From a bacterium (lineage in GTDB: Bacteria; Zhuqueibacterota; Zhuqueibacteria; Residuimicrobiales; Krinioviventaceae), in contig CAXXMD010000003.1 of NCBI GenBank assembly GCA_963675755.2, positions 3,392,001 through 3,456,000 of the forward strand: 64,000 bases of DNA. Reading direction: 5' to 3'. Below are positions 14,393-29,037 of the stretch, piece by piece. Positions within the stretch are counted from its first letter, which is position 1. Each line of letters starts with the position of its first letter. Both the position numbers and the translations under genes were made by a program. The notes below the pieces were generated by a model that was not told the DNA's origin, made no database searches, and worked only from the letters and a program-made list of their open reading frames with translations.

Positions 14393-17287
14393 ATGAGAAA
14401 TGTGCACAAATATGGGTTTTTTATATTATTATTAATTTTATTGTTTGCAATCTCTTGCAGCAATCAAGGGGGATTTGCGAGTCAATCTGTTGAGGATTTG
14501 GTCAATCTGGACAAAGGCTGGCAATATCGAGTTGGTGATTCTCCAATAAATGAAAAAGGATCTCTCGTTTGGCTGGATGAAGACTGGGATGCTCCCGGTT
14601 GGAATAGGGTAAATGATATAAATGATTTTTTTATCAAAAACACAAGCAAAAGCCTGTGGCTGAGGATCCAATTGCCGGAATGGGAAAAAAATAATTCTGG
14701 TATTTATATTAATGGGATTTCTCAAGAGGTACAGGTTTATCTCGATCGGGAATTAATATATCAGTATGGTAATTTTATTTCCCTTGGTGATGATCATTTT
14801 TACGGTTGGAGACAACACCCCATCCAGCTTACACCCAATATTTCAAATAAAGTTTTAACCTTGCGTATTTGGTCCAATGGGCAATATACTGGAATTGTTG
14901 AACCTGTAATTTTGGCATCCATGTTTGATATCATGGAATCACTGTTTTTTCAGAATATTGATGAACTTTTGTTTGCCGGATTATTTATTATTCTTGGTGT
15001 GGCAATTTTAATTATTTTTATTTTTTTTCAACATACCCGTCTGTTTCTGGGTATTGCCATTTTCCTTTTATCTATGGGGTGCTTTACCGGTAGTAATTCT
15101 CTATATTTGCAATATATGGTTAACGCGCCACATCAATTTTTCATGCTTGATCTTTTTTCTCTTCTAGCTGCACCCATTGGAATTTTGTTGATCATTGAAC
15201 CCCTTGTATTACATAAATATGGAAAAATTATCAAACAGTTTAGACGATTTGCAATGCTGTATTGGATTTCTATATTTTTTGTGGTACAGCTTTTTCCTAA
15301 AATTAATCTTGATATTATTTACAACTTTTTTTTCTCTATGGTTGCATTTTTTGTTTTTACCAGTACTTTTTTTATATACAAAAGTTTGAGAAAAGGGGGT
15401 ATGCAAGTTAAAATACTATTTGTTGGTGTGCTTTTAACCCTGCTGGCTTTTTCAATTGAAACCATATTATATTATACCTCACAAAGAGTACTTTTAACTT
15501 CATATAATATGAGTTTTATTCCTGTGGGAGTATTGTGTTTTGTAGGCTGCCTGACATGGATTGTTGTACAGCAATATGTAGTAACCTATAAACAAAAAGA
15601 AGCAGCTTTCAAGAGTGTAATGGAATCTACACTTCAAAGAGAACGTATGAAAGATGAGATTAAACTGAAAAATCTTGAAACGGAAAAATGGCAGGAACTA
15701 AATAAAATGAAATCACAATTTTTTGCCAATATTTCTCATGAATTCCGTACTCCACTTACATTGGTGCTTGGAACAGCGAAGCAGCTTTTAAAAGAAGCAA
15801 ATGATCCCAAGGTTCAAGAAAAATATCATATTCAGATACGTAACGGCAATCGTTTATTACGTCTGGTCAACCAATTGTTAGATCTTTCAAAAATCGAATC
15901 TGGTAAGACCAGGGTTAATGCACAAAAACGTGATATTATTCCAATGATTAAAGGTGTCTGTCAGTGTTTTGAACATCAACTCAAACTTGAAGACATTAAA
16001 CTTACATGTAACAGCGGTGCAGAATCTATTTTATTATATTATGATCCTGCCATGATGGAAAAAATATTGGTAAATGTTATTTCTAATGCAATAAAATTTA
16101 CCAAACCGGGTGGACTCGTAACAATAGATATCATTGAAAAAGAAGTGCTGGAGATTCAGGTCAAAGATACTGGTTCCGGGATTTCTCAGGAATACTTGCC
16201 CCATATTTTTGACAGGTTCTATCAGGCAGGAAATAATTATGAACGTGATCCGTATGGCAGTGGAATTGGACTTGCGCTGACTCGTGAGCTCGTTTTGCTG
16301 CATCATGGGGAGATCAAGGCTGATAGTATAGTTGGGGTAGGGACAACCATTATCATTCAATTACTTTGGGGAAGGGACCATTTTAAAGATGAGGAAATTG
16401 TAAAATCTGACAAAGAAAAATTCATTCAAGATACTTTGATAAAGACTGAAATAGAGTATCTTTTACCAGATAAAATAATAAATATAGGTTCACAAAATAA
16501 TGTACCAGATGCTGGAAATGAGGTTGAAAACAATTTACCCATACTGCTTGTTGTTGAAGATAATATAGATATGTGCAATTATATTCACAACATATTACAG
16601 AATGAATTTAAAATTATCAAGGCATTGGATGGGAAAGCTGGATTTGATCTGGCAGCTGAATATGTACCGGATCTGATTATTAGTGATGTAATGATGCCCG
16701 AAATGGATGGTTTTGTTTTATGTGATCATTTAAAAACGGATGTACGTACCAGTCATATTCCTGTTATTTTGTTAACTGCACGATCTACCCGAGAAAGCAA
16801 GCTTGAGGGGTTACAGGTGGGCGCAGACGATTACCTTGTAAAACCTTTTGATGAGTCTGAACTTTTAACACGCAGCCTAAATCTTGTTGAGCAGAGACGA
16901 AAATTGCGCGAACGTTTTTCAAAAGATTTAAATACTCCATTCAATGTGTTGTCGACCAATCCATCAGATGAAAAGTTTTTGCAACGAGCGGAAGAAATTA
17001 TTCAAGCCAATTTAGATAATACCAATTTAACAGTAGAGTGGTATTGTCATGAGGTCGGTTTGTCCCGTTCACAATTACATCGCAAACTGCAAGCGCTTAC
17101 CGGCAAGTCAACAAGTAACTTTATACGATCCATTCGATTAAAACATGCTGTTGAGATGCTGGTTCGAAAATCAGATACCATTTCAGAAATTGCATATGCC
17201 ACAGGATTCAGTAGTGTAGATTACTTTCGGTATTGTTTTAAAGAACAATTTGGACTTACTCCTACCGATTACCTCTCTCAAAATTAA
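14393..17287 (+). CDS. Hybrid two-component sensor kinase/response regulator (extracellular sensor, ~7 TM, HisKA, HATPase, REC, AraC HTH)
   Basis: FANISHEFRTPL, NAIKFT, DTGSGI, GSGIGL, DLIISDVMMPEMDG, DDYLVKPF, C-terminal AraC LSRSQLHRK...ISEIAYATGF. Confidence 0.93.
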   Translation: MRNVHKYGFFILLLILLFAISCSNQGGFASQSVEDLVNLDKGWQYRVGDSPINEKGSLVWLDEDWDAPGWNRVNDINDFFIKNTSKSLWLRIQLPEWEKNNSGIYINGISQEVQVYLDRELIYQYGNFISLGDDHFYGWRQHPIQLTPNISNKVLTLRIWSNGQYTGIVEPVILASMFDIMESLFFQNIDELLFAGLFIILGVAILIIFIFFQHTRLFLGIAIFLLSMGCFTGSNSLYLQYMVNAPHQFFMLDLFSLLAAPIGILLIIEPLVLHKYGKIIKQFRRFAMLYWISIFFVVQLFPKINLDIIYNFFFSMVAFFVFTSTFFIYKSLRKGGMQVKILFVGVLLTLLAFSIETILYYTSQRVLLTSYNMSFIPVGVLCFVGCLTWIVVQQYVVTYKQKEAAFKSVMESTLQRERMKDEIKLKNLETEKWQELNKMKSQFFANISHEFRTPLTLVLGTAKQLLKEANDPKVQEKYHIQIRNGNRLLRLVNQLLDLSKIESGKTRVNAQKRDIIPMIKGVCQCFEHQLKLEDIKLTCNSGAESILLYYDPAMMEKILVNVISNAIKFTKPGGLVTIDIIEKEVLEIQVKDTGSGISQEYLPHIFDRFYQAGNNYERDPYGSGIGLALTRELVLLHHGEIKADSIVGVGTTIIIQLLWGRDHFKDEEIVKSDKEKFIQDTLIKTEIEYLLPDKIINIGSQNNVPDAGNEVENNLPILLVVEDNIDMCNYIHNILQNEFKIIKALDGKAGFDLAAEYVPDLIISDVMMPEMDGFVLCDHLKTDVRTSHIPVILLTARSTRESKLEGLQVGADDYLVKPFDESELLTRSLNLVEQRRKLRERFSKDLNTPFNVLSTNPSDEKFLQRAEEIIQANLDNTNLTVEWYCHEVGLSRSQLHRKLQALTGKSTSNFIRSIRLKHAVEMLVRKSDTISEIAYATGFSSVDYFRYCFKEQFGLTPTDYLSQN

Positions 17288-17474: not shown

Positions 17475-18749
17475 TTATTTCAAAAATAGAATTTTTTGGG
17501 TATTGTGGTAACCATTTGCCTGCATTCTTATTAAATAAGTACCGCTGGGTGCGGTAATACCGGCATCAGTTAATCCATCCCATTGTATGTTGTATTGGTT
17601 AGCAACTTGTTGTTGGTTTACCAGTGTTTTAATTTGTCGTCCCATTATATCAAATACAGCAATGTTAACAAAACTGTCTTGAGCAAGGTTATAGTTCAAT
17701 GTAGTTGACGGATTGAACGGATTTGGGTATGCTGCAAAAAGCTGAGTGGTTGTTGGCACAGCAGATATATCAACAGATGTTGTACCCAGGATATTTACAT
17801 CGCCATTTATGCTTACATCAGAAAGACGATATGTGTAGTTGTTTTCAATGTCTGCATTGGCATCTGTAAAACAGTATTGTGTTGATGATGATTTGGTTCC
17901 TTGTCCCTTTAAAGAATTATCTGAAATGTATGATGCAATCTGAACCCAATCAGATGATTTTGTTTTGCGATCAATAATGAATCCCATATTGTCAGATTCG
18001 CTAGCGGTAGTCCATTCCAGTTGAACAGAGTTGTTTGCAGATTTTGCAGAGAAGGACATTAATTCCACAGGAAGAGAAAGATCGTTAGCCACTGTCCAGG
18101 TTGCTCCGGTAATTGTTCCGGTATGTCCATTGCCGGTATTATCCGTCAGTGTGGTACCGCTACCATTACTCATTTTATAATAAGCAACAAGGCCTGATTC
18201 GGAACCGGTAAGCTCTATGTTTTTGTTGTTATTAATCTCTGTTACTGAACGAGCATCGTTCCAGATTCTGACTTCATCAATTAGACCGTCAAAAAATCTG
18301 TTGCTAAAATCAACACCAATGCATACCGGATCCGAGTTTGATGATGCATGCAAATATGAAGATGAAGATGTTTTGAGACTGCCATCTATATAAATATAAC
18401 ATACGCCACCATTTATAACACCGGCAACATGGTGCCACGTATTAGCGCTTAGTAAGTTAGTTGGTGTTTGTAATTCGTCAAAACTAATGTTCTGATTGTC
18501 TCCTAAACGTAGTACAAAACCATCTGCTGCACCGGTTTGATATTTAGAGACAATGCCATTTCCTGTTGTAAAACTGTGACAATAGATCCAGGCTTCAATG
18601 GTATAGTCGCCGGTTAAATCGAGGTTGTCATGGTCAGGTATTGCAACAAAATTACTGGAGCCGTTAAATTCGAGGGCATAATTTTGAGCATTTGATGTGC
18701 TCCATAAAAGTAGAACCAGAATAGATAAAACAGTACCAATTTTCCTCAT
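17475..18749 (-). CDS. Secreted LamG/concanavalin-A-like jelly-roll protein with LPVEL module and T9SS-like CTD
   Basis: ALEFNG, YTIEAWI, WHHVAGV, YIDG, FDGLIDEVRIWNDAR, LVAYY; LPVELMSF...YPNPFNP. Confidence 0.88.
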   Translation of the reverse strand: MRKIGTVLSILVLLLWSTSNAQNYALEFNGSSNFVAIPDHDNLDLTGDYTIEAWIYCHSFTTGNGIVSKYQTGAADGFVLRLGDNQNISFDELQTPTNLLSANTWHHVAGVINGGVCYIYIDGSLKTSSSSYLHASSNSDPVCIGVDFSNRFFDGLIDEVRIWNDARSVTEINNNKNIELTGSESGLVAYYKMSNGSGTTLTDNTGNGHTGTITGATWTVANDLSLPVELMSFSAKSANNSVQLEWTTASESDNMGFIIDRKTKSSDWVQIASYISDNSLKGQGTKSSSTQYCFTDANADIENNYTYRLSDVSINGDVNILGTTSVDISAVPTTTQLFAAYPNPFNPSTTLNYNLAQDSFVNIAVFDIMGRQIKTLVNQQQVANQYNIQWDGLTDAGITAPSGTYLIRMQANGYHNTQKILFLK

Positions 18750-19057
18750 TCGTTACTCCTTCCTTAGTCTTTGTCAGATTGCGCTTATTCTTTTGAACTC
18801 AAGTTTTATCAAGTATATTATTCTGTAAATGTGTTGAATTTTTAATCCATGCCCGACCAAAAAACTGACATAACAATACAAACTTTACATGACAATTGAA
18901 AAATCAATTATCTGTGGGCAGCTCATTTTTGATTAAAATGTTTTAAAATGTGTAAATTGTTTTAATATTTTTATAAATGTTATTTTTTAATTAAATGTTT
19001 CAATTTTTATGCCAATCAATAAATAATGTTATTTTTGAGTATTTCTGTTTTAATATA

Positions 19058-19535
19058 TTATTTCAGGAATATGATTTTTGTGTTTGCATTACCGATTCTG
19101 CTTGCAAACGTAATATATAGTTTCCACTTTGTGCGGATATTCCATTATCATTTGTGTCATCCCATTGGATAGAATATTCGCCCGCAGTCTGCAATAGAAT
19201 CATGAGGATAACACCATACGGGCAGCAAGAGCGGAGCCAAGCTGTATATCTGATCCGAATACGGCATCTGCAGATGCCCACAGTTTTAGATTTAATAGAC
19301 CGATTCTGGAACCGTTGAGCTGGATTGATAAACCAGTTGCTGATGCCCCGGTAACATCAGCAGACAGCTGCAAACGGCCCAGAACCTGATCTGAACTCCC
19401 CGGCGTAACTGTTGGTGTATAGCTACTGCCGTCAGTAAAAGTAATAAAATCATTGGATGTGGTAAAATTTCCCTCATCTAAAAGTCTGGATCCTGTCTTG
19501 TTGAATTGCTCATGAAATTTGAATTTGATTCTCAT
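19058..19535 (-). pseudogene. Degraded secreted CTD-protein gene (internal deletion and frameshifts)
   Basis: Passenger-like fragment 19200-19535 without signal peptide; CTD tail AGEYSIQWD...SGNYILRLQ in another frame; adding one A to caaaaatc restores QKIIFLK*, stop at 19058-19060. Confidence 0.7.
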
Positions 19536-19848
19536 TTTCTATTCAGGTTTATCTATTCATGACTTGTACCCAAAATTCCCCAGCAAGTATCTAAAGAACG
19601 ATACTTGCTGGGAATTGTATAGCACGGTAGGGCTCAAGTTGGTTTGTCCGTATGAGAGACAGCACAAATAATGTAATGTTAGGCATTTTAGTTTATACTG
19701 TTTTATAGTGTTACCTATTGATATAATAAATTATATTAATTTGTTTAAAGTTAAAAAATTTCTATATTTACAACATAATAGTATTTGTTAAAATTGGTAA
19801 AACTTTACATTTATGATAAAGATTAAACGGTATTGATAAAAACATGGA

Positions 19849-21591
19849 GTGAATGACTTGGGAAAATTCAGTTTATTAATACAGTTTGTTTTTATGCTTT
19901 GTTTTGTTCTCCTGGGATCCCCAGCTGCCCTATCAAACACGTTTGATTTTGAAGCTCAGATTCGTGGTTTAGACACATTGAATGTTGAACAATTCCGTTT
20001 GGAAATTGATACGTTATATTTTGAACTGGAACGCATCAATGACTATAAAATTAAAAAGGAATATGCCGATCGTCTTTTTGCTATCACCAGGGAGAGAGAC
20101 GAGTTGGCACACATTCGTTCTTTGGTTTATCCGGTAATCTATCCGGATTCTATCAAAGTGCTTTATATGAAAGAAGCATTTGAAATTGCAAAAAGATTAA
20201 ACTCTGTCAAAGAATTGGCTTGGCTGGAAGAGAGACGGTGCCGTCATTATATGCAAAAAGCACAGTATGATTCGGCAATGACAAGTTTATTAATATTAAG
20301 GGATGAATACTGTCCCAATCCTGGCAGCGATGAGTACCTGAATATTGAGAATTTATTGGGTGATATTTACTATAGAACCGGTATGTATGAACAAGCACTG
20401 ACTGCTTACCAAAATATTTATAAAGAGTTTGAGAAACAGGACATATGGGATTATTGGCGCCCCTATGTCATCATGAATAATATTGGTTTAATAGGAATTG
20501 AACTAGAAAACTTTAAACTTGCTGAAACCTGGTTTAACAAGTCATTACAAAAAGCCAGACAATATTTGATGGTTCCTGAAAAAAATAACATCATTGCCTA
20601 TATTTTGGTGAAATTAATGCAAGTTAATATCGAAAATGAACGCTTCGACGACGCCAGAAATTATTTACAGCAAATATTATCTATGCCACAAGATCAAATT
20701 TATACTGATGTTCACCAGGAACTTTTATTTGTGAAAAGTACACTTTTGTTAAATGAGGGGGATGCAGATGGAGCATTGGAACAGGTACAAGCTTTATTAG
20801 ATTATGGTAAAAAAAGACAAGCTGCTGTACGGTTTAAAATTGAAGTTGATTTGTTGCTATCTCAAATATACAAAGCGCAGGGTAAACGCCAATTGGCTTT
20901 ACAGCATTTGGAAAAATATACAGTTGTAAATGATTCTCTAATGAAACATAATCACTCAATTCGTTCGTTACTTTTGCTGGCAGAAAAAGATCATAAACTT
21001 ACAAGAGAAAAGTTAAAAGCTGCCAAACGTCAGGAATTATGGTTGTATTCATTCATATCTATTATATTAGTAGCCTTGGTGATTGTTGTTCTGTTATATA
21101 GACGGCTTTACCTTTCAAAGTTGCAAATGGTTGATAATGCAATGGAAAAACAATTAAAAGGAGACAGACCATCTGTAACTGCTAGATTAAACGAGTTACC
21201 AAAAGACAATGAACAGCAAGAGGGCACATTTCAACTACTTTCTCAGCTGGATGAATTGATTACCGAGAAAAAAATATATCTTGATCCTGATTTGAATATT
21301 CAAAAAACAGCAGACTATTTGTCTACTAACCGAACCTATTTATCTACAGCTATAAATAATACCTACAATATGAACTTTCCTACCTATATTAACCGCTTGC
21401 GCATACAGGAATCGATACAACTGATTGCTGAAGGTTTTACAAAAAATCAGACACTGGAAGCATTGGCCTCACAATCCGGTTTCGCCAATCGGGTTGTGTT
21501 TGTAACCGCGTTTAAAAAGTATACCGGTGTTACTCCGTCCTTTTTTATCAAAAATTTTGAGCATTATCGTGCAAAACTGGGTGTTAAATAA
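19849..21591 (+). CDS. Membrane-anchored AraC-family regulator with extracytoplasmic TPR sensor
   Basis: N-terminal hydrophobic segment, TPR-like helices, one TM (LWLYSFISIILVALVIVVLLY), AraC YLDPDL..LSTNRTYLS..IN..F..YIN.LRI...SGF...F..AFKK.TG.TPS.F. Confidence 0.88.
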   Translation: MNDLGKFSLLIQFVFMLCFVLLGSPAALSNTFDFEAQIRGLDTLNVEQFRLEIDTLYFELERINDYKIKKEYADRLFAITRERDELAHIRSLVYPVIYPDSIKVLYMKEAFEIAKRLNSVKELAWLEERRCRHYMQKAQYDSAMTSLLILRDEYCPNPGSDEYLNIENLLGDIYYRTGMYEQALTAYQNIYKEFEKQDIWDYWRPYVIMNNIGLIGIELENFKLAETWFNKSLQKARQYLMVPEKNNIIAYILVKLMQVNIENERFDDARNYLQQILSMPQDQIYTDVHQELLFVKSTLLLNEGDADGALEQVQALLDYGKKRQAAVRFKIEVDLLLSQIYKAQGKRQLALQHLEKYTVVNDSLMKHNHSIRSLLLLAEKDHKLTREKLKAAKRQELWLYSFISIILVALVIVVLLYRRLYLSKLQMVDNAMEKQLKGDRPSVTARLNELPKDNEQQEGTFQLLSQLDELITEKKIYLDPDLNIQKTADYLSTNRTYLSTAINNTYNMNFPTYINRLRIQESIQLIAEGFTKNQTLEALASQSGFANRVVFVTAFKKYTGVTPSFFIKNFEHYRAKLGVK

Positions 21592-21631
21592 CACGATATT
21601 TATTAAGAAAAATTATTTTAGAAAAATGTAT

Positions 21632-21658
21632 AGCCCTTTCGGTCTTTTCCGAAAGAGA
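21632..21658. terminator. Hairpin terminator of the groEL-type family (degenerate copy)
   Basis: agccctttcgg-tcttt-tccgaaagaga; resembles 39016, 41881, 43146, 44585. Confidence 0.6.
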
Positions 21659-21681
21659 TATACAAATTTTGTTATAAAATG

Positions 21682-23022
21682 TTATTTGATAAACAATACT
21701 TTTTGTAAATGAGTTGTGTTCCCTGCATTCATCCGAATCAGGTAGGTACCGCTTGGGGCAAGCTGACCGCTATCTGTAGAGCCATTCCACTGGACCGAAT
21801 ATTCACCCGCAGGTTGTTTTTGGTTAATCAGCTGTTTGACCTGACGACCCAAAACATCATAAACTAACATGGTAATGTGGTTCTCTTTTGCCAAATTATA
21901 CTTGAGCGTTGTTGATGGATTAAACGGATTCGGATAGGCTGAAAATAATTGTGTGAAAACTGGCACCGTTTCGTTAACAGATGTTGTACCAATACTGTTT
22001 ATTGTTCCGGTTGTGCTGACTTTAGATAGGCGATAGATGTAATTCACTCCTGCTGATACATTCTTATCTGTAAAAATATATTTAAATGGGGAGGAGGTAG
22101 TGCCTTGTCCTGTTAATTCCGTATGGGTTTTGTATGAGGCAATCTGCATCCAATTGGTTTCTTCAGTTTTACGTTCGATAATAAAACCGATATTGTCACT
22201 TTCGCTGGCAGTGATCCATTTGATATCAATCCCCTTTGAGGTAGATACTGCAGTGAAGGATTGTAATGATACCGGTAAGCTTCCGTCAAGCCCTGTACCT
22301 TTTATCGAAAAGCTAAAAGTGCTTTCATCTTGATCATCGTTGGATATTGTGATTGTTGCCGTGCGTGTTCCCTGAACAGTCGGATCAAAGGTCACCTGAA
22401 ACGTTGATGAACTGCCTATGCTGATTTCAGAATTGGGATCAAGAGTGACAGAAAAATCGCCAGCGTGGGAACCGCCAATCTCAACCAGCGGAGTACCAGT
22501 CAATGCCAATGCCCAAACTCCGCTATTTGATATTGTAAATGTATGATTAATTGTTTGACCGGTTACAAAGGCATCACCAAAGTCTGTCAAGTCAGTTAGT
22601 TCGGGAGTAGAGTCATTATTCCCAATATCCAGTCCATTACCGGATACGGATATTTCAGGCCAAAGTACAGTAACCAGAGGAGTGCCGGTTGCTTCACCCC
22701 ACAAAACCCACCCCGAAGCTGGCGGTTCAGAAGGAGTAACCTCCGGAGGTCTGTATTCTACATAATATAAAATATCATCATCATCATTATAGTTGGTATC
22801 AATATTCCAGTATTCAACGCCGCCGTACCAGTCACAATAGACATAATTTCCGTCAGCGTCCATCCAGTATTTATAACCATCACTATCTATACCTTGAACA
22901 GTATAGGTACCATTTACATTTGCTGGAATTGTAATTCCGGTAACTTCCAAGCCCTGGCTGTAAACCTGTGAAACAATGAATAATGCAAATACCAGAAAAA
23001 ATGTTTGTTTTATTCTTTTCAT
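21682..23022 (-). CDS. Secreted Ig-like (choice-of-anchor D/ASH-type) protein with LPVSL module and T9SS-like CTD
   Basis: PEISVSGNG..I...D.TP...D.TDFG...HTFTISNSG...F.V.FDP...GTRTATITISNDD.DE..F.F.I.GTG; YPNPFNP CTD. Confidence 0.82.
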   Translation of the reverse strand: MKRIKQTFFLVFALFIVSQVYSQGLEVTGITIPANVNGTYTVQGIDSDGYKYWMDADGNYVYCDWYGGVEYWNIDTNYNDDDDILYYVEYRPPEVTPSEPPASGWVLWGEATGTPLVTVLWPEISVSGNGLDIGNNDSTPELTDLTDFGDAFVTGQTINHTFTISNSGVWALALTGTPLVEIGGSHAGDFSVTLDPNSEISIGSSSTFQVTFDPTVQGTRTATITISNDDQDESTFSFSIKGTGLDGSLPVSLQSFTAVSTSKGIDIKWITASESDNIGFIIERKTEETNWMQIASYKTHTELTGQGTTSSPFKYIFTDKNVSAGVNYIYRLSKVSTTGTINSIGTTSVNETVPVFTQLFSAYPNPFNPSTTLKYNLAKENHITMLVYDVLGRQVKQLINQKQPAGEYSVQWNGSTDSGQLAPSGTYLIRMNAGNTTHLQKVLFIK

Positions 23023-23049
23023 TTTTTTCTCTTTTTAAACACGTTAATG

Positions 23050-23625
23050 TTAATTTTTTTGTTTTGTGTTATGCGGGTCCTGACCTTTTACACAAATATA
23101 ATATTTTAGCACCAATACTGGTTGAATATTTGAATGGGGTTGATTAACACCGGAAGAGATGATAACACCAGGTGCCATTGTTGTTGAAGAAATGGAAGGA
23201 GAGGAATAGTATTTTAGATCATCATACTTTTCATCCAGTTCTTTTGTTTTTGCAGGATAATTGTTTTCAATTTCCAAGTTGTCTGCATCTTTGGTAGAGC
23301 AAAATACCGAATGATTATGGGAAGGTATTTGAGATTTGGTTAAAATCACTTCACTGGCCCCCCCTGTTTCTCCCAAAGTACGTCCTGTTAGATTCACTCG
23401 TTTACCCACTCCAACCACTACTCTGTCTTTCAGGTTCGGAATTGCAAAATTGTTGACCCCATCTCCTCCGAAATGATTTCCAATTATTGCAAATAATTCA
23501 GGATATTCTGTAATCATTAACAGGCGACCATCGCAATATTTCCAATTTGTGGTAATAAATTCTCCGTGTGGATTGTAGGGGAATGCTTCTATGGTACCCA
23601 TAAAACTGGTTTCACTGGCCATCAT
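23050..23625 (-). CDS. Phage tail-collar domain (microcystin-dependent protein-like) protein 3
   Basis: FMGTI..F...W.YCDG.LL.I.EY..LFAIIG..FGGDG..NFAIPNL..R...G, GG...V.L...Q.PSHNH, H.N.QP.L.L.Y.ICV.G; start reassigned to ATG 23625/23622 after RBS AAGGAG. Confidence 0.88.
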   Translation of the reverse strand: MMASETSFMGTIEAFPYNPHGEFITTNWKYCDGRLLMITEYPELFAIIGNHFGGDGVNNFAIPNLKDRVVVGVGKRVNLTGRTLGETGGASEVILTKSQIPSHNHSVFCSTKDADNLEIENNYPAKTKELDEKYDDLKYYSSPSISSTTMAPGVIISSGVNQPHSNIQPVLVLKYYICVKGQDPHNTKQKN

Positions 23626-24181
23626 GTTCTCCTTTGTTTTCAGATTCATGCCTTGGGGGAAAGATACCATTTATACATATAATGTAATTTAAGCAGAAAA
23701 ATGGCATCATATTCTCATGAGCCTCGCCATCGCCTGTCATACCAATCATATTCTTTTTCATTAATACATCTTTATCTTTTCTATAAAAATGATATTTGTC
23801 AGAACTGCTGTTTTGAGCCGGATAATTATTTTCAGGATCATTAACCAAGCCTGTTCTACCTGGTGTTGTAGTACATTGAACATGGTGATTATGTAATGGC
23901 ATTTGATCTTTTTCCAATATTATTTTTTCATAACCACCATGATTCCCAAGATTGAAATTTGACGATTCACCTTGTCCGGTACCAACCGGTATACATCCAC
24001 GCAAATCCGGCAATGCTATTGTAGTTTGGCCATCTCCCCCAAAATTGTTGCCAATTAGGGCTGCAAGTGCCTTGTGATCACTCACAGACAAAATTGATCC
24101 ATCACAAAATGCCCAATCTGTGGGTGGTTTTGGACCAGCAAAAAGTGCTATCTCTCCTAAAAAGCTGTTTAAACCTGCCAT
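23612..24181 (-). CDS. Phage tail-collar domain protein 2
   Basis: FLGEIALFAG..PP.DWAFCDG..L...ALAALIG..FGGDG.TT.ALPDLRG, MPLHNHH, HENMMPF..LNYIICING.FP. Confidence 0.9.
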   Translation of the reverse strand: MAGLNSFLGEIALFAGPKPPTDWAFCDGSILSVSDHKALAALIGNNFGGDGQTTIALPDLRGCIPVGTGQGESSNFNLGNHGGYEKIILEKDQMPLHNHHVQCTTTPGRTGLVNDPENNYPAQNSSSDKYHFYRKDKDVLMKKNMIGMTGDGEAHENMMPFFCLNYIICINGIFPPRHESENKGEHDGQ

Positions 24182-24196
24182 CTTTTCCTCCTGTGT

Positions 24197-24724
24197 TTAT
24201 TCTAATGGCTCTTGTTCATGTGGATATATACCTTCAACACAAATGATATAATGTAATGCTAAAAAAGGCTGCATATTCGAGTGTCCGTTGATTCCACCTT
24301 CCTGGCTTATTATCTCATCTCCCATTGTTTTGTTATCATGTTCTGCGCAATAACATAAAATGTTTTCAAGGTTTGGTTTTGCGAAAATGTTGTTTTGAGG
24401 TTCGGAAGATTTTGTTGTATCACTAACATCACAAAATACAGAGTGGCTATGTGACGGAGTATGATATTTTTGTAGATAAGATTTTTCTTTTCCAAGATTC
24501 ATTGCAAAATGAAAATTGCCTTCTCCCATAACCGTTCTACCACTAAGATTAGGTAAGCAAAAAGTCATATGCCCGTCCCCTCCGAAATTAATCCCAATGA
24601 TATTATACAACCTGGCATATTTTGCGATCTCTAGGATATCACCATTACAAAACATCCAGTTTTTAGGAGGATAGCTCCCGGAATAAAGTTTTATGGTTCC
24701 AATAAAATCATCATTTTCCTGCAT
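24197..24724 (-). CDS. Phage tail-collar domain protein 1
   Basis: FIGTIKLY.G..PP.NWMFCNG..L.I..Y..L..IIG..FGGDG..TF.LPNL.GR, PSHSH, H.NMQPFL.L.YIICV.GIYP. Confidence 0.9.
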   Translation of the reverse strand: MQENDDFIGTIKLYSGSYPPKNWMFCNGDILEIAKYARLYNIIGINFGGDGHMTFCLPNLSGRTVMGEGNFHFAMNLGKEKSYLQKYHTPSHSHSVFCDVSDTTKSSEPQNNIFAKPNLENILCYCAEHDNKTMGDEIISQEGGINGHSNMQPFLALHYIICVEGIYPHEQEPLE

Positions 24725-24880
24725 TGAAAATCTCCTGTTAGATTTTTTAAGCGAAATTCCAGACCAGTCCCCTTGAATTTAACCAGAGTAAAAAACAAAA
24801 ATTTTAGAGGTAATGGACCAATCTAATCTTTCATGAATACAACTGAATCGATAATAAGATATGGATTAAATAAATACCCT

Positions 24881-24923
24881 AACAAGCAGATATGTTGCAA
24901 AATGCAGAGATTATGTTGCATTT
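24881..24923 (-). promoter_or_regulatory. Putative AraC-type operator, copy 2, upstream of the tail-collar operon
   Basis: Minus strand aaaTGCAACAtaatctctgcatttTGCAACAtatctgcttgtt; 21-bp period. Confidence 0.65.
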
Positions 24924-25036
24924 GAGATGTGAAAATGAAGTTTTTTGAGGAAAAGTAATTTAAAATTGATTGTTATAATGAATCAGATATGGTTTTGTTA
25001 AATTTTGTTATTTCTGATTTTTTTAATAGCGAGGAT

Positions 25037-25076
25037 AAAAAGGCGCCTCCCCACATTGAATCATTGCGGGGAGGCG
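25037..25076 (-). terminator. Intrinsic terminator after 25082 gene
   Basis: cgcctcccc...ggggaggcg stem; A tract on + strand is the U tract on - strand. Confidence 0.7.
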
Positions 25077-25081
25077 GAAAG

Positions 25082-26743
25082 TTATTTTAAAAGTTGTATT
25101 TTTTGACTTTGATTGTAGCCTGCTGTTTGCATACGTACCAGATAAGTACCACTAGGTGCTGGTGTCCCTGCATTGGTTAAGCTGTCCCATCTGATAGAGT
25201 GTTCACCGGCGATTTGCTGTTGATTGACAAGTGATTTTATCTCACGTCCCAGAACGTCATAAACTGTCAGCGTAACATGGCTGTCTTTAGCCAGACTATA
25301 GTTAAGGGTAGTGGATGGATTGAAGGGATTGGGATACGCTGCAAGCAGTTGTGTGGTTTGGGGAGTTGTTGATGCTACAACGGATGTATTGCCAATCACA
25401 TTCACGGTACCGGTTGTACTGACTTCGGAAAGACGATAAGTGTAATCCACTCCCATTGATATATTATTATCTGTAAAATTATATTGCGACGGGTAAGAGG
25501 TAGTGCCTTGTCCTGTCAATTCAGCATGTGTTTGATATGAAGCGATCTGTTGCCAACTGGTGTCGTCAGATTTACGATCAATAATGAAGCCGATATTGTC
25601 TGTTTCGCTGGCGGTGTTCCATTCCAGTTCTATAGTATTGCTTGCACTTTTAGCAGTAAAAGAAACAAGATTAACTGGTAAGGTAAGGTCTGAAGAACTT
25701 ACCCATTGAGATGATTCACTGGGATCAAGTATCCCAAACCATGTCATGTTTGCAATATCGTCAATTACGGGTGTTGTGAGATTGTCGGGTGCTGATCCTC
25801 CAAAGCCAAAAGTTAGTGTGATTATATTTCCTGTATTCGAAACAATAATATTGTTTTCATTAACACCTGCACCGGAAACCGTTTTTATCGTTTTGCCGTC
25901 CCAGGCACCAGTAACAAATGCTCTGTCGGCATCTTCAAGAATTTTGTTAGCGAGGTCGACATTGCCTCCATGGATATCAGTGAGACCAGAATAAAAAGTG
26001 CCTGTTGCAAGTCCTTTTGAATCAGAAATAGTTGTGCCGCTCCCGGCATCAAAATTCCAATAGCTCTTGCAATTTGTATTGTTAATTGTTGTTTTACTGG
26101 ACATTTGATTTTGAATATCAGTTAGACTCAAGGCTGAATCCCATACTCTTGCTTCATCCAGATAGCCTACGAAAAATCCATATCCCCATGGCAGTCTTCC
26201 CATGTTCAACCTGCAATCTGTGTTTGCCCGAATATTTCCGCTTTGATTGGCTTCGTTTTCCAAAGATCCATTTACATATATCCTGACTTTAGAGCCATCA
26301 TAAGTTCCCGTCAAAAAGTACCATGTTCCTGTACTGGGTTTTGTACTAGATGTTACGCTTACTTTGGTTCCGGATTCATTTTCAACTGTAAATTCGAATT
26401 TATTTGATACTTTGGTGTTCCGTAGCCAGAATTGACCATGTTCGGTAGTAATGTTTAATGTATTGTGAGTTGCATATGAAATATATGAAGAGTATTGCCC
26501 TTCTCGTTCATCATGGTTTGATACAGACCATGAACTTGGATCGGTAGTCCATTTAATCCAAACAGCTACTGTGAGTTGATCTGTAAATCCATAATTAGGA
26601 GCCCCACAATAAATGAAATCGCCATGTGAATTAAAGTTCGCATTCTGAAAATTTATTGCTGTCCCCGCCTGGCTGTATAAATTACCAGGCACTAAAAAAA
26701 ATACGCTTGTAATCAATGTTAATAATATTAATGTTTTTTTCAT
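25082..26743 (-). CDS. Secreted LamG jelly-roll protein with LPVNL module and T9SS-like CTD
   Basis: LTVAVWI, WYFLTGTYDG...IYVNG, F.GYLDEARVW, YWNFD.GSG; start reassigned to ATG 26743 (MKKTLI). Confidence 0.87.
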   Translation of the reverse strand: MKKTLILLTLITSVFFLVPGNLYSQAGTAINFQNANFNSHGDFIYCGAPNYGFTDQLTVAVWIKWTTDPSSWSVSNHDEREGQYSSYISYATHNTLNITTEHGQFWLRNTKVSNKFEFTVENESGTKVSVTSSTKPSTGTWYFLTGTYDGSKVRIYVNGSLENEANQSGNIRANTDCRLNMGRLPWGYGFFVGYLDEARVWDSALSLTDIQNQMSSKTTINNTNCKSYWNFDAGSGTTISDSKGLATGTFYSGLTDIHGGNVDLANKILEDADRAFVTGAWDGKTIKTVSGAGVNENNIIVSNTGNIITLTFGFGGSAPDNLTTPVIDDIANMTWFGILDPSESSQWVSSSDLTLPVNLVSFTAKSASNTIELEWNTASETDNIGFIIDRKSDDTSWQQIASYQTHAELTGQGTTSYPSQYNFTDNNISMGVDYTYRLSEVSTTGTVNVIGNTSVVASTTPQTTQLLAAYPNPFNPSTTLNYSLAKDSHVTLTVYDVLGREIKSLVNQQQIAGEHSIRWDSLTNAGTPAPSGTYLVRMQTAGYNQSQKIQLLK

Positions 26744-26950
26744 CTTGCAACTTCCCTTCAAGAAAAGAATTGAAAAAAATGCCAGGTATTAATTAAGTAA
26801 AGTACTTTAGCATTCTTTATTATTTTCTTTCTATTGCCGAACTCTTTATTTTTTGTATCCTATTAAGAGTAGGCTGGCTATTTATATCAGTATCGGCAAA
26901 ATCCAGGGAATTTAAAGTGAAAATGAAGATAAAATTATTAATATAAGCAA

Positions 26951-26985
26951 TTCAAGGCAACCTTCTTGTAGAGGGTTGCCTTGGA
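26951..26985 (-). terminator. Hairpin after 26988 gene
   Basis: caaggcaacc...ggttgccttg stem. Confidence 0.65.
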
Positions 26986-26987
26986 GT

Positions 26988-28796
26988 TTATTTTATATAT
27001 AAAACTTTGTGAATTTGGCTAAAATCTGTTGTCTGCATCCGCACCAGATAAGTACCGCTAGTTGCGGTTGTACCTGAATCAGTAGAACCATCCCATTGTA
27101 TAGAGTGGTCACCGGCAACTTGCTGTTGATTGAGTAATGTTTTGATCTGTCTTCCCAAAACATCATAAACTGTTAGCGTAACATGACCGTCTTTGGCCAG
27201 GTTATAATTCAGTGTTGTTGAGGGATTAAACGGATTCGGATACGCCGCAAACAGTTGTGTGGTTGAAGGTATTGTTGCTGTAACCGTTGTTGTACCAATT
27301 TCTGTTTTTGCTCCGGAAGTACATACTTCATAGAGACGATAAGTGTAATCCACTCCTGCGATAGTATTGTTATCCATAAAGCAGTACTGAGACGGGGAGG
27401 AGGTACTACCTTGTCCCGTCAGTTCCGAATGAGTTTGGTAGGAGGCAAGCTGCTGCCAGTCAGTGCTGCCGGACTTGCGATATATGACAAAACCAAGGTT
27501 GTCATTTTCGCTGGCAGTGGTCCATTCAAGATTGATGGAATTACCTTTGTTTGATGCTGTAAAGGATACCAGTTCTACGGGTAAAGCGTCGTCACCAACT
27601 TTGTACTCATATGCACCCATATCGATTGTGCCTGCTGCCCCAGTAGTTTTGTCCAGTTTGCGGTCAAATCCGTTACCGCGGATGTCATAGCTTTCGCTGC
27701 AATAGCTGTCGTAGCCGGTATCGGTACAGGGAGAAATACCGCTAATGCTGTAGGGATGAGTTGCATTATTAGAGGGTCCGACAAATTGCGGATTGGTTGT
27801 TATGCAATTGTTTGTGGCTGTTAGCGTGCCGCCATTGTTGTAAACATCACCCGCATCATTTCCATAGCAGCTAAAATTAAAAATGGGTGCTCCTGTGTCA
27901 ATATAGATTTCATTGCCATTGGTAGTACTTGAATTACCCCAAATGATACAGTTATATAATTCGGGATCAGAATTATTCGAGTATATTCCTCCTCCATTAT
28001 CAGCGGAATTACCTGTTATGGTTACATTGGTCATTTGCATGGCTGATGATAATAAGCAAATACTGCCGCCGTCACCATCACATGTGTTATCACTAATCAA
28101 ACCATTGACGAGAATAGGGGCGCCGGATGTATTATACATTGCACCACCGGACACTGTCGCATGATTGCCTGTGAATGAGCAGTTGGTCATGCTTAAACCT
28201 GATCTTGTGTTAAACATGGCACCACCGTATTTCGCTTCATTGTTTTTAAATGTAACATTTACAAGCGTTGGTGTGCAGGTATTATTATGCATCCCACCAC
28301 CATACGTATGCTCTACCACTGTTTCATAATATGCCATACCATCACTAATAGTAACACCATCAAGTACAGCTGTGTTATCCAGGCCGATACTGTTATGATA
28401 GAATACATGGTAACAATGATCACCGCCCAGGTCACCGCTTAGGATGGTTTCATTGTCCTGTCCCGGAGCATAATTGGTGCGTTCGCTCACAGCAGATTCT
28501 GTTCCTGCGAATCCACCATAGACAGTTACTCCATTGATCAATCTGAAATGGTTATAGGTAGATCTACCCCCACCAACAAGGCCATAGTCAGAAGAGGGAA
28601 CATAGGTACCTTTGGCGATCCAGATTTCATCGGGAGATGTCGCAACGTCCAGGGCTGATTGAAGAGAAGTGTAGGCGTGGGTCCAACTGGTTCCATCATT
28701 GTTGCCGCCTGCATTGATATCAACATAGATGGTGGCGCTCCATAGAGGTAGAACAATAGCAAGTGAAACAAGAACCATGAGCATAGTCTTTTTCAT
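26988..28796 (-). CDS. Secreted right-handed beta-helix (pectin-lyase-like/POMP-repeat, choice-of-anchor Q-like) protein with LPVEL module and CTD
   Basis: IYVD.NA.G.NDGTSW..AY..LQ.AL, repeated F..N.A..GGAM, SPC.D.G...D.RG..R...IDMGAYE; ATG 28796 after RBS AAGGA. Confidence 0.85.
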   Translation of the reverse strand: MKKTMLMVLVSLAIVLPLWSATIYVDINAGGNNDGTSWTHAYTSLQSALDVATSPDEIWIAKGTYVPSSDYGLVGGGRSTYNHFRLINGVTVYGGFAGTESAVSERTNYAPGQDNETILSGDLGGDHCYHVFYHNSIGLDNTAVLDGVTISDGMAYYETVVEHTYGGGMHNNTCTPTLVNVTFKNNEAKYGGAMFNTRSGLSMTNCSFTGNHATVSGGAMYNTSGAPILVNGLISDNTCDGDGGSICLLSSAMQMTNVTITGNSADNGGGIYSNNSDPELYNCIIWGNSSTTNGNEIYIDTGAPIFNFSCYGNDAGDVYNNGGTLTATNNCITTNPQFVGPSNNATHPYSISGISPCTDTGYDSYCSESYDIRGNGFDRKLDKTTGAAGTIDMGAYEYKVGDDALPVELVSFTASNKGNSINLEWTTASENDNLGFVIYRKSGSTDWQQLASYQTHSELTGQGSTSSPSQYCFMDNNTIAGVDYTYRLYEVCTSGAKTEIGTTTVTATIPSTTQLFAAYPNPFNPSTTLNYNLAKDGHVTLTVYDVLGRQIKTLLNQQQVAGDHSIQWDGSTDSGTTATSGTYLVRMQTTDFSQIHKVLYIK

Positions 28797-29037
28797 GATC
28801 AATTCCTTGTCGTTTTGATTCGCAAACTGTTTTTTTTATGGAGATTTGAAGAAAAGTAATAATGAATATAATAAATTGATTTTACAAAATCAAATCTTAA
28901 TCATTTATCCATTGGTAGAATGGTTTCATTTCAGGTTATTAATAGATTATTCAGGGCAAGTAGCCCTTGCTTTCAAATTCGAAAGTTTGTAATTTCAAGA
29001 TTAAAGATTTAAATTTTTTTATAAAGGAGGTTTGTAA

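Follow-up and report, generated by a model that had tools for sequence, protein, structure and literature searches.

A 64,000-nt window of the genome of a member of the Zhuqueibacterota (family Krinioviventaceae; GenBank assembly GCA_963675755.2, contig CAXXMD010000003.1, positions 3,392,001 to 3,456,000) contains, on its minus strand, an operon of three small genes for proteins with the phage tail Collar module (Pfam PF07484), here called A, B and C, and a fourth gene, D, for a predicted cargo protein of the type IX secretion system (T9SS). Our analysis suggests that A, B and C constitute a domesticated heterotrimeric binding knob that works together with secreted surface proteins, an explanation to which we assign a probability of about one half. 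On this view each of the three proteins would be a copy, diverged from the other two, of the module with which a phage tail fibre binds its receptor at its C-terminal end (in T4, collar and head of gp12, or the tip of gp37), and would consist of this module alone. Their genes being tightly coupled in one operon, the three would be produced in equal amounts and could assemble 1:1:1 into a single pseudo-threefold knob, the three HxH pairs of which would line the knob axis and hold a metal ion as in phage fibres. Such a knob would be a domesticated bacterial module, separate from phage, tailocin or injection system, and by analogy with fused relatives it may be a lectin- or adhesin-like head that cooperates with secreted surface proteins rich in immunoglobulin (Ig)-like domains, the partner in this operon being the co-transcribed D.

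Gene A (24724..24197, minus strand; 175 aa) carries its HxH motif as SHSH, gene B (24181..23612, minus strand; 189 aa) as LHNHH and gene C (23625 or 23622..23050, minus strand; ~190 aa) as SHNH, the same motifs that had been read in the original prediction. That prediction also spoke of three diverged tail-collar paralogs without signal peptides, a description with which the list of open reading frames (ORFs), the Pfam matches and a pairwise identity of 37% among A, B and C all agree. In the Pfam profile search, the E-values for PF07484 were 1.2e-20 for A, 2.2e-22 for B and 3.4e-17 for C (73.6, 79.2 and 62.6 bits, gathering cut-off 24), and C gives a weak Gp10_C match as well. Each of the three is a whole module of ~170 aa, which begins near the F-x-G-E-I start, contains the HxH and ends with PHxNxQP...NYxI...G.FP. 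None of A, B or C has a hydrophobic N-terminus, each beginning 6-8 residues before the F-x-G-x-I motif, and a shaft or attachment region before the collar is absent from all three, the in-frame upstream extension being only junk that overlaps B. The start of C is ATGATG at 23625/23622, which the mechanically called ORF extends upstream to 23670; both the ortholog in a congener (genome G001) and the library representative P0092 begin at the identical MASETSF, matching this start. Between A and B there are 15 nt, the first 11-14 nt of C lie within the end of B, and C is followed after 27 nt by D (23022..21682, minus strand; 446 aa), so that the coordinates and the domain matches of D agree with the tight or overlapping spacing, and with the Ig-domain cargo carrying a C-terminal sorting domain (CTD) 27 bp further on, that had been described originally. 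Shine-Dalgarno-like sequences lie 5' of A (AGGAGA) and 5' of B (AGGAGGA).

That the three modules form one unit is indicated most strongly by gene fusion. When 1.84 billion representative sequences were searched with a profile, 62,904 clusters (50% identity) were obtained at E<=1e-3 and 28,173 at E<=1e-10, phage proteins included. Among the best 150 of these 62,904 relatives, 108 were chains of three modules and 30 were chains of two, while four, five and six modules were present in two, one and four chains, respectively. Within the same 150, chains of 440-700 aa consisted of three modules in 84 cases out of 85. Every module of the fused chains that were read retains its own HxH. Modelled with AlphaFold2, the fused chain P0011 (507 aa, 20 sequences) reached a mean predicted local distance difference test (pLDDT) of 86.1 and a predicted template modelling score (pTM) of 0.84, and B alone (70 sequences) reached a pLDDT of 73.6, with 55-70 in its C-terminal half, and a pTM of 0.54. 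A poor model of B alone beside a confident model of the fused chain would be expected of a head that folds only when three chains are present.

Split triplets are likewise widespread. A pattern scan with one genome per species produced 25 loci from Bacillota, Bacteroidota, Rhodothermota, Pseudomonadota, Verrucomicrobiota, Chloroflexota and Actinomycetes, in which collar ORFs were counted with a hidden Markov model (HMM) of A, B and C. Of the 25 loci, 18 have three collar ORFs side by side and no more, the remainder having six (one locus), four (two), five (one) or a single one (three); in this survey of neighbourhoods, which had been proposed together with the original prediction, triplets recur in non-phage contexts across phyla. 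Of 113 genomes from the phylum of the window, 18 have any Collar match, and the tandem arrays among the 113 are five triplets (genomes G000, the host, and G001, G102, G103 and G105) and one pair. On plasmid and chromid records, most full-length matches occupy three places per record and bear the label 'tail fiber protein' of the Prokaryotic Genome Annotation Pipeline (PGAP).

An alignment of 70 modules was built from 23 loci and the window. The tree made from it left out L031, L033, L035, L032_p1 and L032_p4, which are partial or permuted, as well as L036, a duplicate of L011; alignments A4-A6 additionally left out L032:4285-5436. In this tree the position of a gene within its locus needs 23 label changes, versus 39.1 after shuffling, and none of 200 shuffles was as low. 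The position clades are common to Bacillota and Proteobacteria. Both histidines of the HxH are invariant in 70 of 70 aligned modules, and conservation at N150, P153 and G165 is complete or no lower than 90%.

There are however several points that weigh against a strictly three-part unit. The ranking by summed score, from which the best 150 relatives were taken, over-represents multi-module relative to single chains; it would favour chains of at least four modules still more, yet such chains are rare among the best 150. A single-chain AlphaFold2 model can in addition turn contacts between chains into contacts within one chain. In the tree, the three paralogs of the window fall outside the position clades of the other phyla and group weakly together and with a Rhodothermaceae triplet. 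Finally, single collar genes (L016, L024, L031, G014) and arrays of four to five (L025, L034, L032) exist, so that homotrimers must also be possible. In the rival explanation that takes up this last point, each paralog would form its own homotrimer, giving three knobs of differing specificities and no heterotrimer. Besides the single genes and the longer arrays, this rival can draw on T4 gp12 and gp37, which are homotrimers, and on the 37% identity, which leaves room for diverged specificity. Independent homotrimers give no reason, however, for the preference for three modules in the fused chains, and the pTM of the fused chain, the overlapping and coupled genes and the fact that Bacillota and Proteobacteria have both kept the three position clades all argue against it as well, as does a precedent from a virophage. 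In virophage DSLV2 (PMC12724248, J Virol 2025), the products of three consecutive collar genes were co-purified at 1:1:1; they make fibres of ~16 nm and attach to cells of Synechococcus, and the corresponding homotrimers were judged less stable in silico. We regard separate homotrimers as improbable, and the comparative evidence makes it probable, with good though not full confidence, that A, B and C form one 1:1:1 heterotrimer. A prediction of A+B+C by itself cannot separate hetero- from homotrimers, because assembly is probable by the likeness to gp12.

The parallel with DSLV2 extends to the genes, since both sets consist of three consecutive PF07484 genes of similar size, the DSLV2 proteins being ~19 kDa and matching the gp37 tip (PMC12724248). 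They differ in that the virophage fibres are proposed to be anchored on the capsid and their 1:1:1 composition was shown, whereas the set described here, with neither capsid nor virion, lies on a bacterial chromosome within a T9SS cargo operon and is a predicted heterotrimer. In the open literature searched, 'tail collar' and heterotrimer occurred together only in this virophage study, and both bacterial triplets as a split pseudo-trimer and triple fusions were undescribed.

The phage relationship of the module can be seen at several levels. Full-length matches (150-170 residues) of A, B and C are phage tail proteins (PHROGs; 783 phage records), and at the sequence level the HxH aligns with the SHQH of the solved cyanophage fibre 8kec. 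A Foldseek search with the model of the fused P0011 gave no matches at E<=0.001; in a second structural comparison, the modules of P0011 gave middling Z scores of 5.8-6.1 with residues 336-527 of T4 gp12, 6.1 with the gp37 tip and 6.2 with 8kec, the C-terminal half of the model of B being too poorly determined to serve as a query. The likeness to T4 gp12 (1OCY, 5IV5) and to the gp37 tip (2XGF) consists in the Collar sequence match, the HxH and, to judge from the fused relative with its middling Z of 5.8-6.1, perhaps the fold. In gp12 and gp37 the HxH binds metal. The T4 proteins are homotrimers of long chains with shaft and baseplate attachment, encoded among tail genes; here, in contrast, only the tip module is present, spread over three genes and outside a tail gene cluster.

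Circularly permuted collar modules were also encountered (L033 4689-7096; P0022, P0053, P0077 and others). In these chains a signal peptide is followed first by the segment that is normally C-terminal (…GGGQPHxNxQPxLxLNYxI…). Circular permutation fits an intertwined trimer in which the chain ends meet at the collar. Four of nine long triple-module fusions examined (P0046, P0054, P0067, P0076) showed a partial Peptidase_M10 match to the part with the zinc site (profile positions ~94-145 of 159), located near or past the collar modules.

That the module has been domesticated is well supported by the lack of contractile machinery, by purifying selection and by the occurrence of triplets across phyla. 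In the congener the identical four genes are found in the same order, adjoining the same convergent AraC-type regulator, with amino-acid identities of 85% for A, 94% for B, 91% for C and 83% for D. The corresponding dN/dS values are 0.13, 0.12, 0.17 and 0.22; all four genes are under purifying selection and are kept, not decaying. The host genome (6.48 Mb, 98% complete) was searched as a whole for Collar and tail families. Its Collar matches are these three only, and nowhere in it was there a match to sheath (PF04984), sheath_1C (PF17482), gp25 (PF04965), Baseplate_J (PF04865) or VipB (PF05943). The tube family PF06841 gave two adjacent matches (G000:C3:3080021-3081016, i.e. L044 3-1106, minus strand; E 3e-37 and 5e-29), which lie outside the window, ~333 kb from the triplet. 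Upstream of this pair are proteins of 136 and 258 aa without Pfam match, followed by a sulfate/citrate-type symporter and an MFS transporter, and downstream is a TPR protein. The pair was considered as a contractile injection system (CIS) locus and rejected on account of these neighbours and of the lack of sheath or baseplate genes nearby; it is an orphan pair. The HK97 capsid family (PF05065) has a single match on another contig (G000:C2:2024734-2025513, L048; E 1.5e-12), which may be a prophage or encapsulin-like gene. In the window itself, the neighbours of the triplet are T9SS cargo genes and regulators, with no tail gene cluster among them.

These searches speak to a further rival, according to which A, B and C are the leftover of a prophage or tailocin, or fibres for a contractile system or phage encoded elsewhere in the genome. 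The family name and the PGAP label point that way, as do the two adjacent gp19-type tube genes and the HK97-type match on contig C2. On the other side, the genome has no match to either sheath model, gp25, Baseplate_J or VipB, the tube pair sits among transporter, TPR and no-Pfam genes, and the collar of A, B and C is not preceded by a shaft or attachment region; in addition, the operon with its T9SS cargo has been kept in the congener under purifying selection, and triplets occur in non-phage contexts across phyla. We consider this rival hardly credible. The original prediction had stated that there was no phage around the genes, and the search of the whole genome extends this statement well beyond the window, the tube pair and the capsid match being distant. 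It had also proposed a search for extracellular contractile injection system (eCIS) or tailocin loci elsewhere, and this search came upon the orphan tube pair only. Like the fibres of eCIS and tailocins (Afp13/Pvc13-type, R-tailocin), A, B and C would be phage-derived fibre proteins put to bacterial use; unlike the present set, those fibres need sheath, tube and baseplate. A paper on R-tailocins reportedly mentions PF07484 (PMC4684702).

In both of its parts, the original reading as a domesticated heterotrimeric mini tail fibre is well supported on comparative grounds, namely by the triplets, the triple fusions, the model of the fused chain, the invariant HxH and the virophage precedent. It went on to propose that this fibre is displayed on, or exported with, the secreted scaffold, and here the evidence is divided.

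Protein D is, judged from its domain matches, predicted to be a T9SS type A cargo with a Sec signal and a type A sorting domain above cut-off. In detail, D matches the choice-of-anchor D domain (NF012200, E 1.5e-22), the T9SS type A sorting domain (TIGR04183, E 3e-10, 39.9 bits, cut-off 23) and PF18962 (30.2 bits, cut-off 27), with PF13860 matched as well, and a signal-like segment, MKRIKQTFFLVFALFIVSQVYSQ, can be recognised by eye at its N-terminus. The signal peptide is followed by an Asp/aromatic-rich region, the Ig-like choice-of-anchor D domain, a pre-CTD region that recurs in three neighbouring cargo genes, and the type A CTD. The N-terminal region of ~100 aa, rich in Asp and aromatic residues, is lineage-specific and complete only in P0151, P0152 and P0155.

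A link between collar modules and secreted scaffolds is suggested by relatives and neighbourhoods in other genomes. All nine of the long fusions examined add Cadherin, Big_9, SdrD_B, LamG, DUF11/CARDB, FG-GAP, PEP-CTERM, RTX or a Planctomycete extracellular motif. Many fused chains among the best 150 have Sec-like N-termini by eye, and three have Tat motifs of the RRxFLK type. In the split triplet L033 a signal peptide is present on each of the three circularly permuted subunits. Neighbourhoods were sampled at 25 + 3 + 6 loci, and in 10 of the 25 loci an adjacent large protein encoded on the same strand has SLH, cadherin-like, Big, FG-GAP, beta-helix, S8+CUB, DUF4347-fn3 or T9SS domains. On a Ruegeria megaplasmid, a giant choice-of-anchor D protein, with the same domain as in D, adjoins the triplet, and on Deinococcus and Spirosoma replicons a 900-aa beta-helix protein and a giant protein with a cellulose-binding domain lie beside triplets. 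At all five triplet loci of the window's phylum, the same-strand cluster includes a T9SS cargo or a signal-peptide protein of 1405-1552 aa, as judged by BLASTP against D and by HMMs made from sequences of the window.

Other observations point the opposite way. A, B and C have no signal peptide, collar genes are leaderless in 22 of the 25 loci, and 52 of the best 150 relatives are leaderless as well. Co-export of A, B and C with D via Sec is impossible, because A-C are leaderless and D crosses the inner membrane unfolded. A gene for a cytoplasmic N-acetyltransferase of the GNAT type lies beside the triplet in 9 of the 25 loci, which fits a cytoplasmic step or role. Ten further neighbouring proteins, mostly encoded on the other strand or one position further out, have unrelated functions (peptidases, PhoX, a kinase, an amine oxidase, an O-antigen ligase and similar). 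A complex prediction of A, B and C with residues 24-245 of D, in which D was scored, gave a score of 0.00 with the mark at 0.32, and this counts neither for nor against binding.

Out of these observations comes the rival that A-C act inside the cell as a cytoplasmic metal- or ligand-binding trimer in the manner of the abundant, soluble RhiA/RhiB and MrpA/MrpB, perhaps together with a GNAT, and that D is only co-regulated. Such a role would suit the split triplets without signal peptides, the GNAT genes at the nine loci and the GNAT-like genes in the other triplet operons of the phylum, and also the formyltransferase, sulfotransferase, APS (adenosine 5'-phosphosulfate) kinase, hydroxylase and aminotransferase genes that are found near some triplets. 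Support may also be drawn from RhiB of the Rhizobium rhi operon, which carries a Collar domain and COG4675 (PMC13133039, PMC6969944), and from Microcystis MrpA, a prominent spot in a comparison of cell proteomes (PMC3328848). Against a cytoplasmic role speak the fused relatives, in which Sec or Tat signals occur along with PEP-CTERM, RTX and adhesin domains, and L033 with a signal peptide on every subunit of a split triplet; homologous phage and virophage modules bind cell surfaces (PMC12724248), and the recurrent giant secreted neighbours would be left unexplained. We hold the cytoplasmic explanation to be a minority possibility, one that deserves to be kept in mind.

An extracellular binding role of A-C, as the favoured explanation of a knob working with surface proteins demands, appears to us about evenly balanced, while a direct physical link between A-C and D is rather doubtful. 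The idea of display on, or export with, the scaffold is supported by its context, i.e. giant secreted neighbours and fusions to adhesin and sorting domains; a difficulty for export alongside D is that A-C are leaderless, co-export via Sec being impossible.

The homology to receptor-binding tips allows one more rival, a defence decoy, in which a tip copy made by the host masks or occupies the phage receptor on its own surface or senses phage parts; the patchy, transfer-like distribution (18 of 113 genomes of the phylum) would go well with it. PADLOC gave no matches for A, B, C, D or a neighbouring GNAT, however, and the window has no defence-island context. Moreover, A-C are leaderless, and the fusion partners are of the adhesin type, not nuclease, NTPase or other effector domains. 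A decoy is very unlikely in our view.

The window's proteins, COG4675/MdpB ('microcystin-dependent protein'), RhiB and MrpB belong to the same family of small stand-alone bacterial Collar proteins. To our knowledge, the function of RhiB, MrpA/MrpB and COG4675 in bacteria has been open since the 1990s. Microcystis MrpA and MrpB resemble RhiA and RhiB (PMC3328848), and MrpC, which was studied alongside MrpA and MrpB, is a secreted, glycosylated pilin (PMC12397347). The rhi operon differs from the operon described here in that rhiA and rhiC are without Pfam domain, so that rhiABC is no obvious collar triplet (PMC13133039). The rhi genes are controlled by quorum sensing. Close to the operon of the window, regulator genes code for an AraC-type TPR protein and for a hybrid kinase that has an AraC helix-turn-helix (HTH).

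The operon of the window is a further member of a very widespread family, and its interest lies in the picture at the level of that family. A trimer of three different modules, the repeated triple fusion and the fusion to export or adhesin domains together suggest a binding head for surface proteins. We put forward only tentatively, and as less likely than its converse, the wider proposal that many phyla carry a domesticated, pseudo-threefold and metal-centred fibre-tip knob, encoded by three co-translated genes or as one three-module chain, as the business end of giant secreted adhesins (T9SS, SLH, PEP-CTERM or RTX cargo). On this proposal, the head in its split, leaderless form would first assemble around its metal inside the cell, next to a GNAT at many loci, and would then be transferred to the surface. 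If true, the proposal would define a surface lectin system of a new class in bacteria and assign a function to COG4675, MdpB and RhiB. On the practical side, labels of the PGAP type ('tail fiber protein') make bacterial Collar members resemble prophage debris, and the present finding is a warning to prophage-finding tools against counting collar triplets as phage genes.

Several observations were made on the other genes near triplets. A single GNAT family of 155-180 aa adjoins triplets in distant phyla (L012, L013, L014, L015, L017, L019, L020, L023, L026). Within the phylum of the window, such genes lie at L049 7123-7608, L050 7054-7545 and L052 8458-8958; GNAT-like genes come after the other triplets of this phylum, together with a small protein of ~100 aa in one to three copies per locus. 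Neither the GNAT nor the ~100-aa protein is found in the operon of the window. At L027 and L029 2435-4909 (a Gammaproteobacteria metagenome-assembled genome and Acidovorax sp. Leaf78), an APS kinase, an Asp/Asn beta-hydroxylase and a 389-aa protein related to a Verrucomicrobia sulfotransferase are encoded upstream of the triplet and a 1450-aa DUF4347-fn3 protein downstream of it, a context that hints at sulfation or hydroxylation tied to the collar system. A 405-aa Ruegeria protein and a 388-aa Deinococcus protein, both downstream of triplets, are unrelated to each other and gave no Pfam matches. In genome G078 (L052 6609-8371), a 199-aa protein with a Tat-like signal that follows the collar pair was considered as a third subunit and rejected, since with an hhalign probability of 0.15% it is not a collar homolog.

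Upstream of A, the block 24876..24930 (minus strand) is near-invariant in the pairwise alignment of the window with the congener, the remainder of the 357-nt spacer being far less conserved. The block contains two direct repeats, TGCAACATA, 21 nt apart, and is a candidate for the promoter or a regulator site of the A-D operon. Genes for AraC-HTH regulators lie on both sides of the cargo island (14393-17287 and 19849-21591); in detail, a 964-aa protein is a hybrid sensor kinase/receiver/AraC protein and a 580-aa protein is a membrane TPR-AraC protein encoded convergently with D. Both are candidates for binding the conserved TGCAACATA repeats. The original prediction had placed the genes behind a 'shared operator', which is probably the 16-nt motif ATTACTTTTCCTCAAA (24944..24959, minus strand) with its second copy at 28845-28860, upstream of a cargo gene with its start at 28802. 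The motif does occur twice in the window and is conserved only in part in the congener; five of 100 shuffles gave at least two matches to the 16-nt pattern, which itself was derived from those two copies, and the best-conserved block lies elsewhere (24930-24876). As an operator the motif is a weak candidate.

Two hairpins probably delimit the transcription unit. A hairpin with a T-run at 25037..25075 (minus strand), after the upstream cargo gene, separates this gene from the A-D transcription unit; it was found by eye, its loop being too long for the pattern scan. Another, CTCTTTCGG / CCGAAAGGG at 21634..21657 (minus strand), 25 nt past the stop of D, is likely the end of the A-D operon; it was also found by eye and was not listed by the pattern scan.

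The collar operon is located within an island of paralogous T9SS cargo genes (17475-28802; products of 424, 446, 559 and 604 aa), the heads of which are LamG, choice-of-anchor D and beta-helix domains. A C-terminal region of ~650 nt is repeated in four genes of the window (D and three other cargo genes), with 60-78% nucleotide identity. In addition, a further cargo gene seems to have left a remnant at 19063-19535 (minus strand), where short overlapping ORFs run into a CTD-like tail (…YSIQWDDTNDNGISAQSGNYILRLQ…), and at the matching place the congener has an intact ORF of 656 aa (L036 2380-4350).

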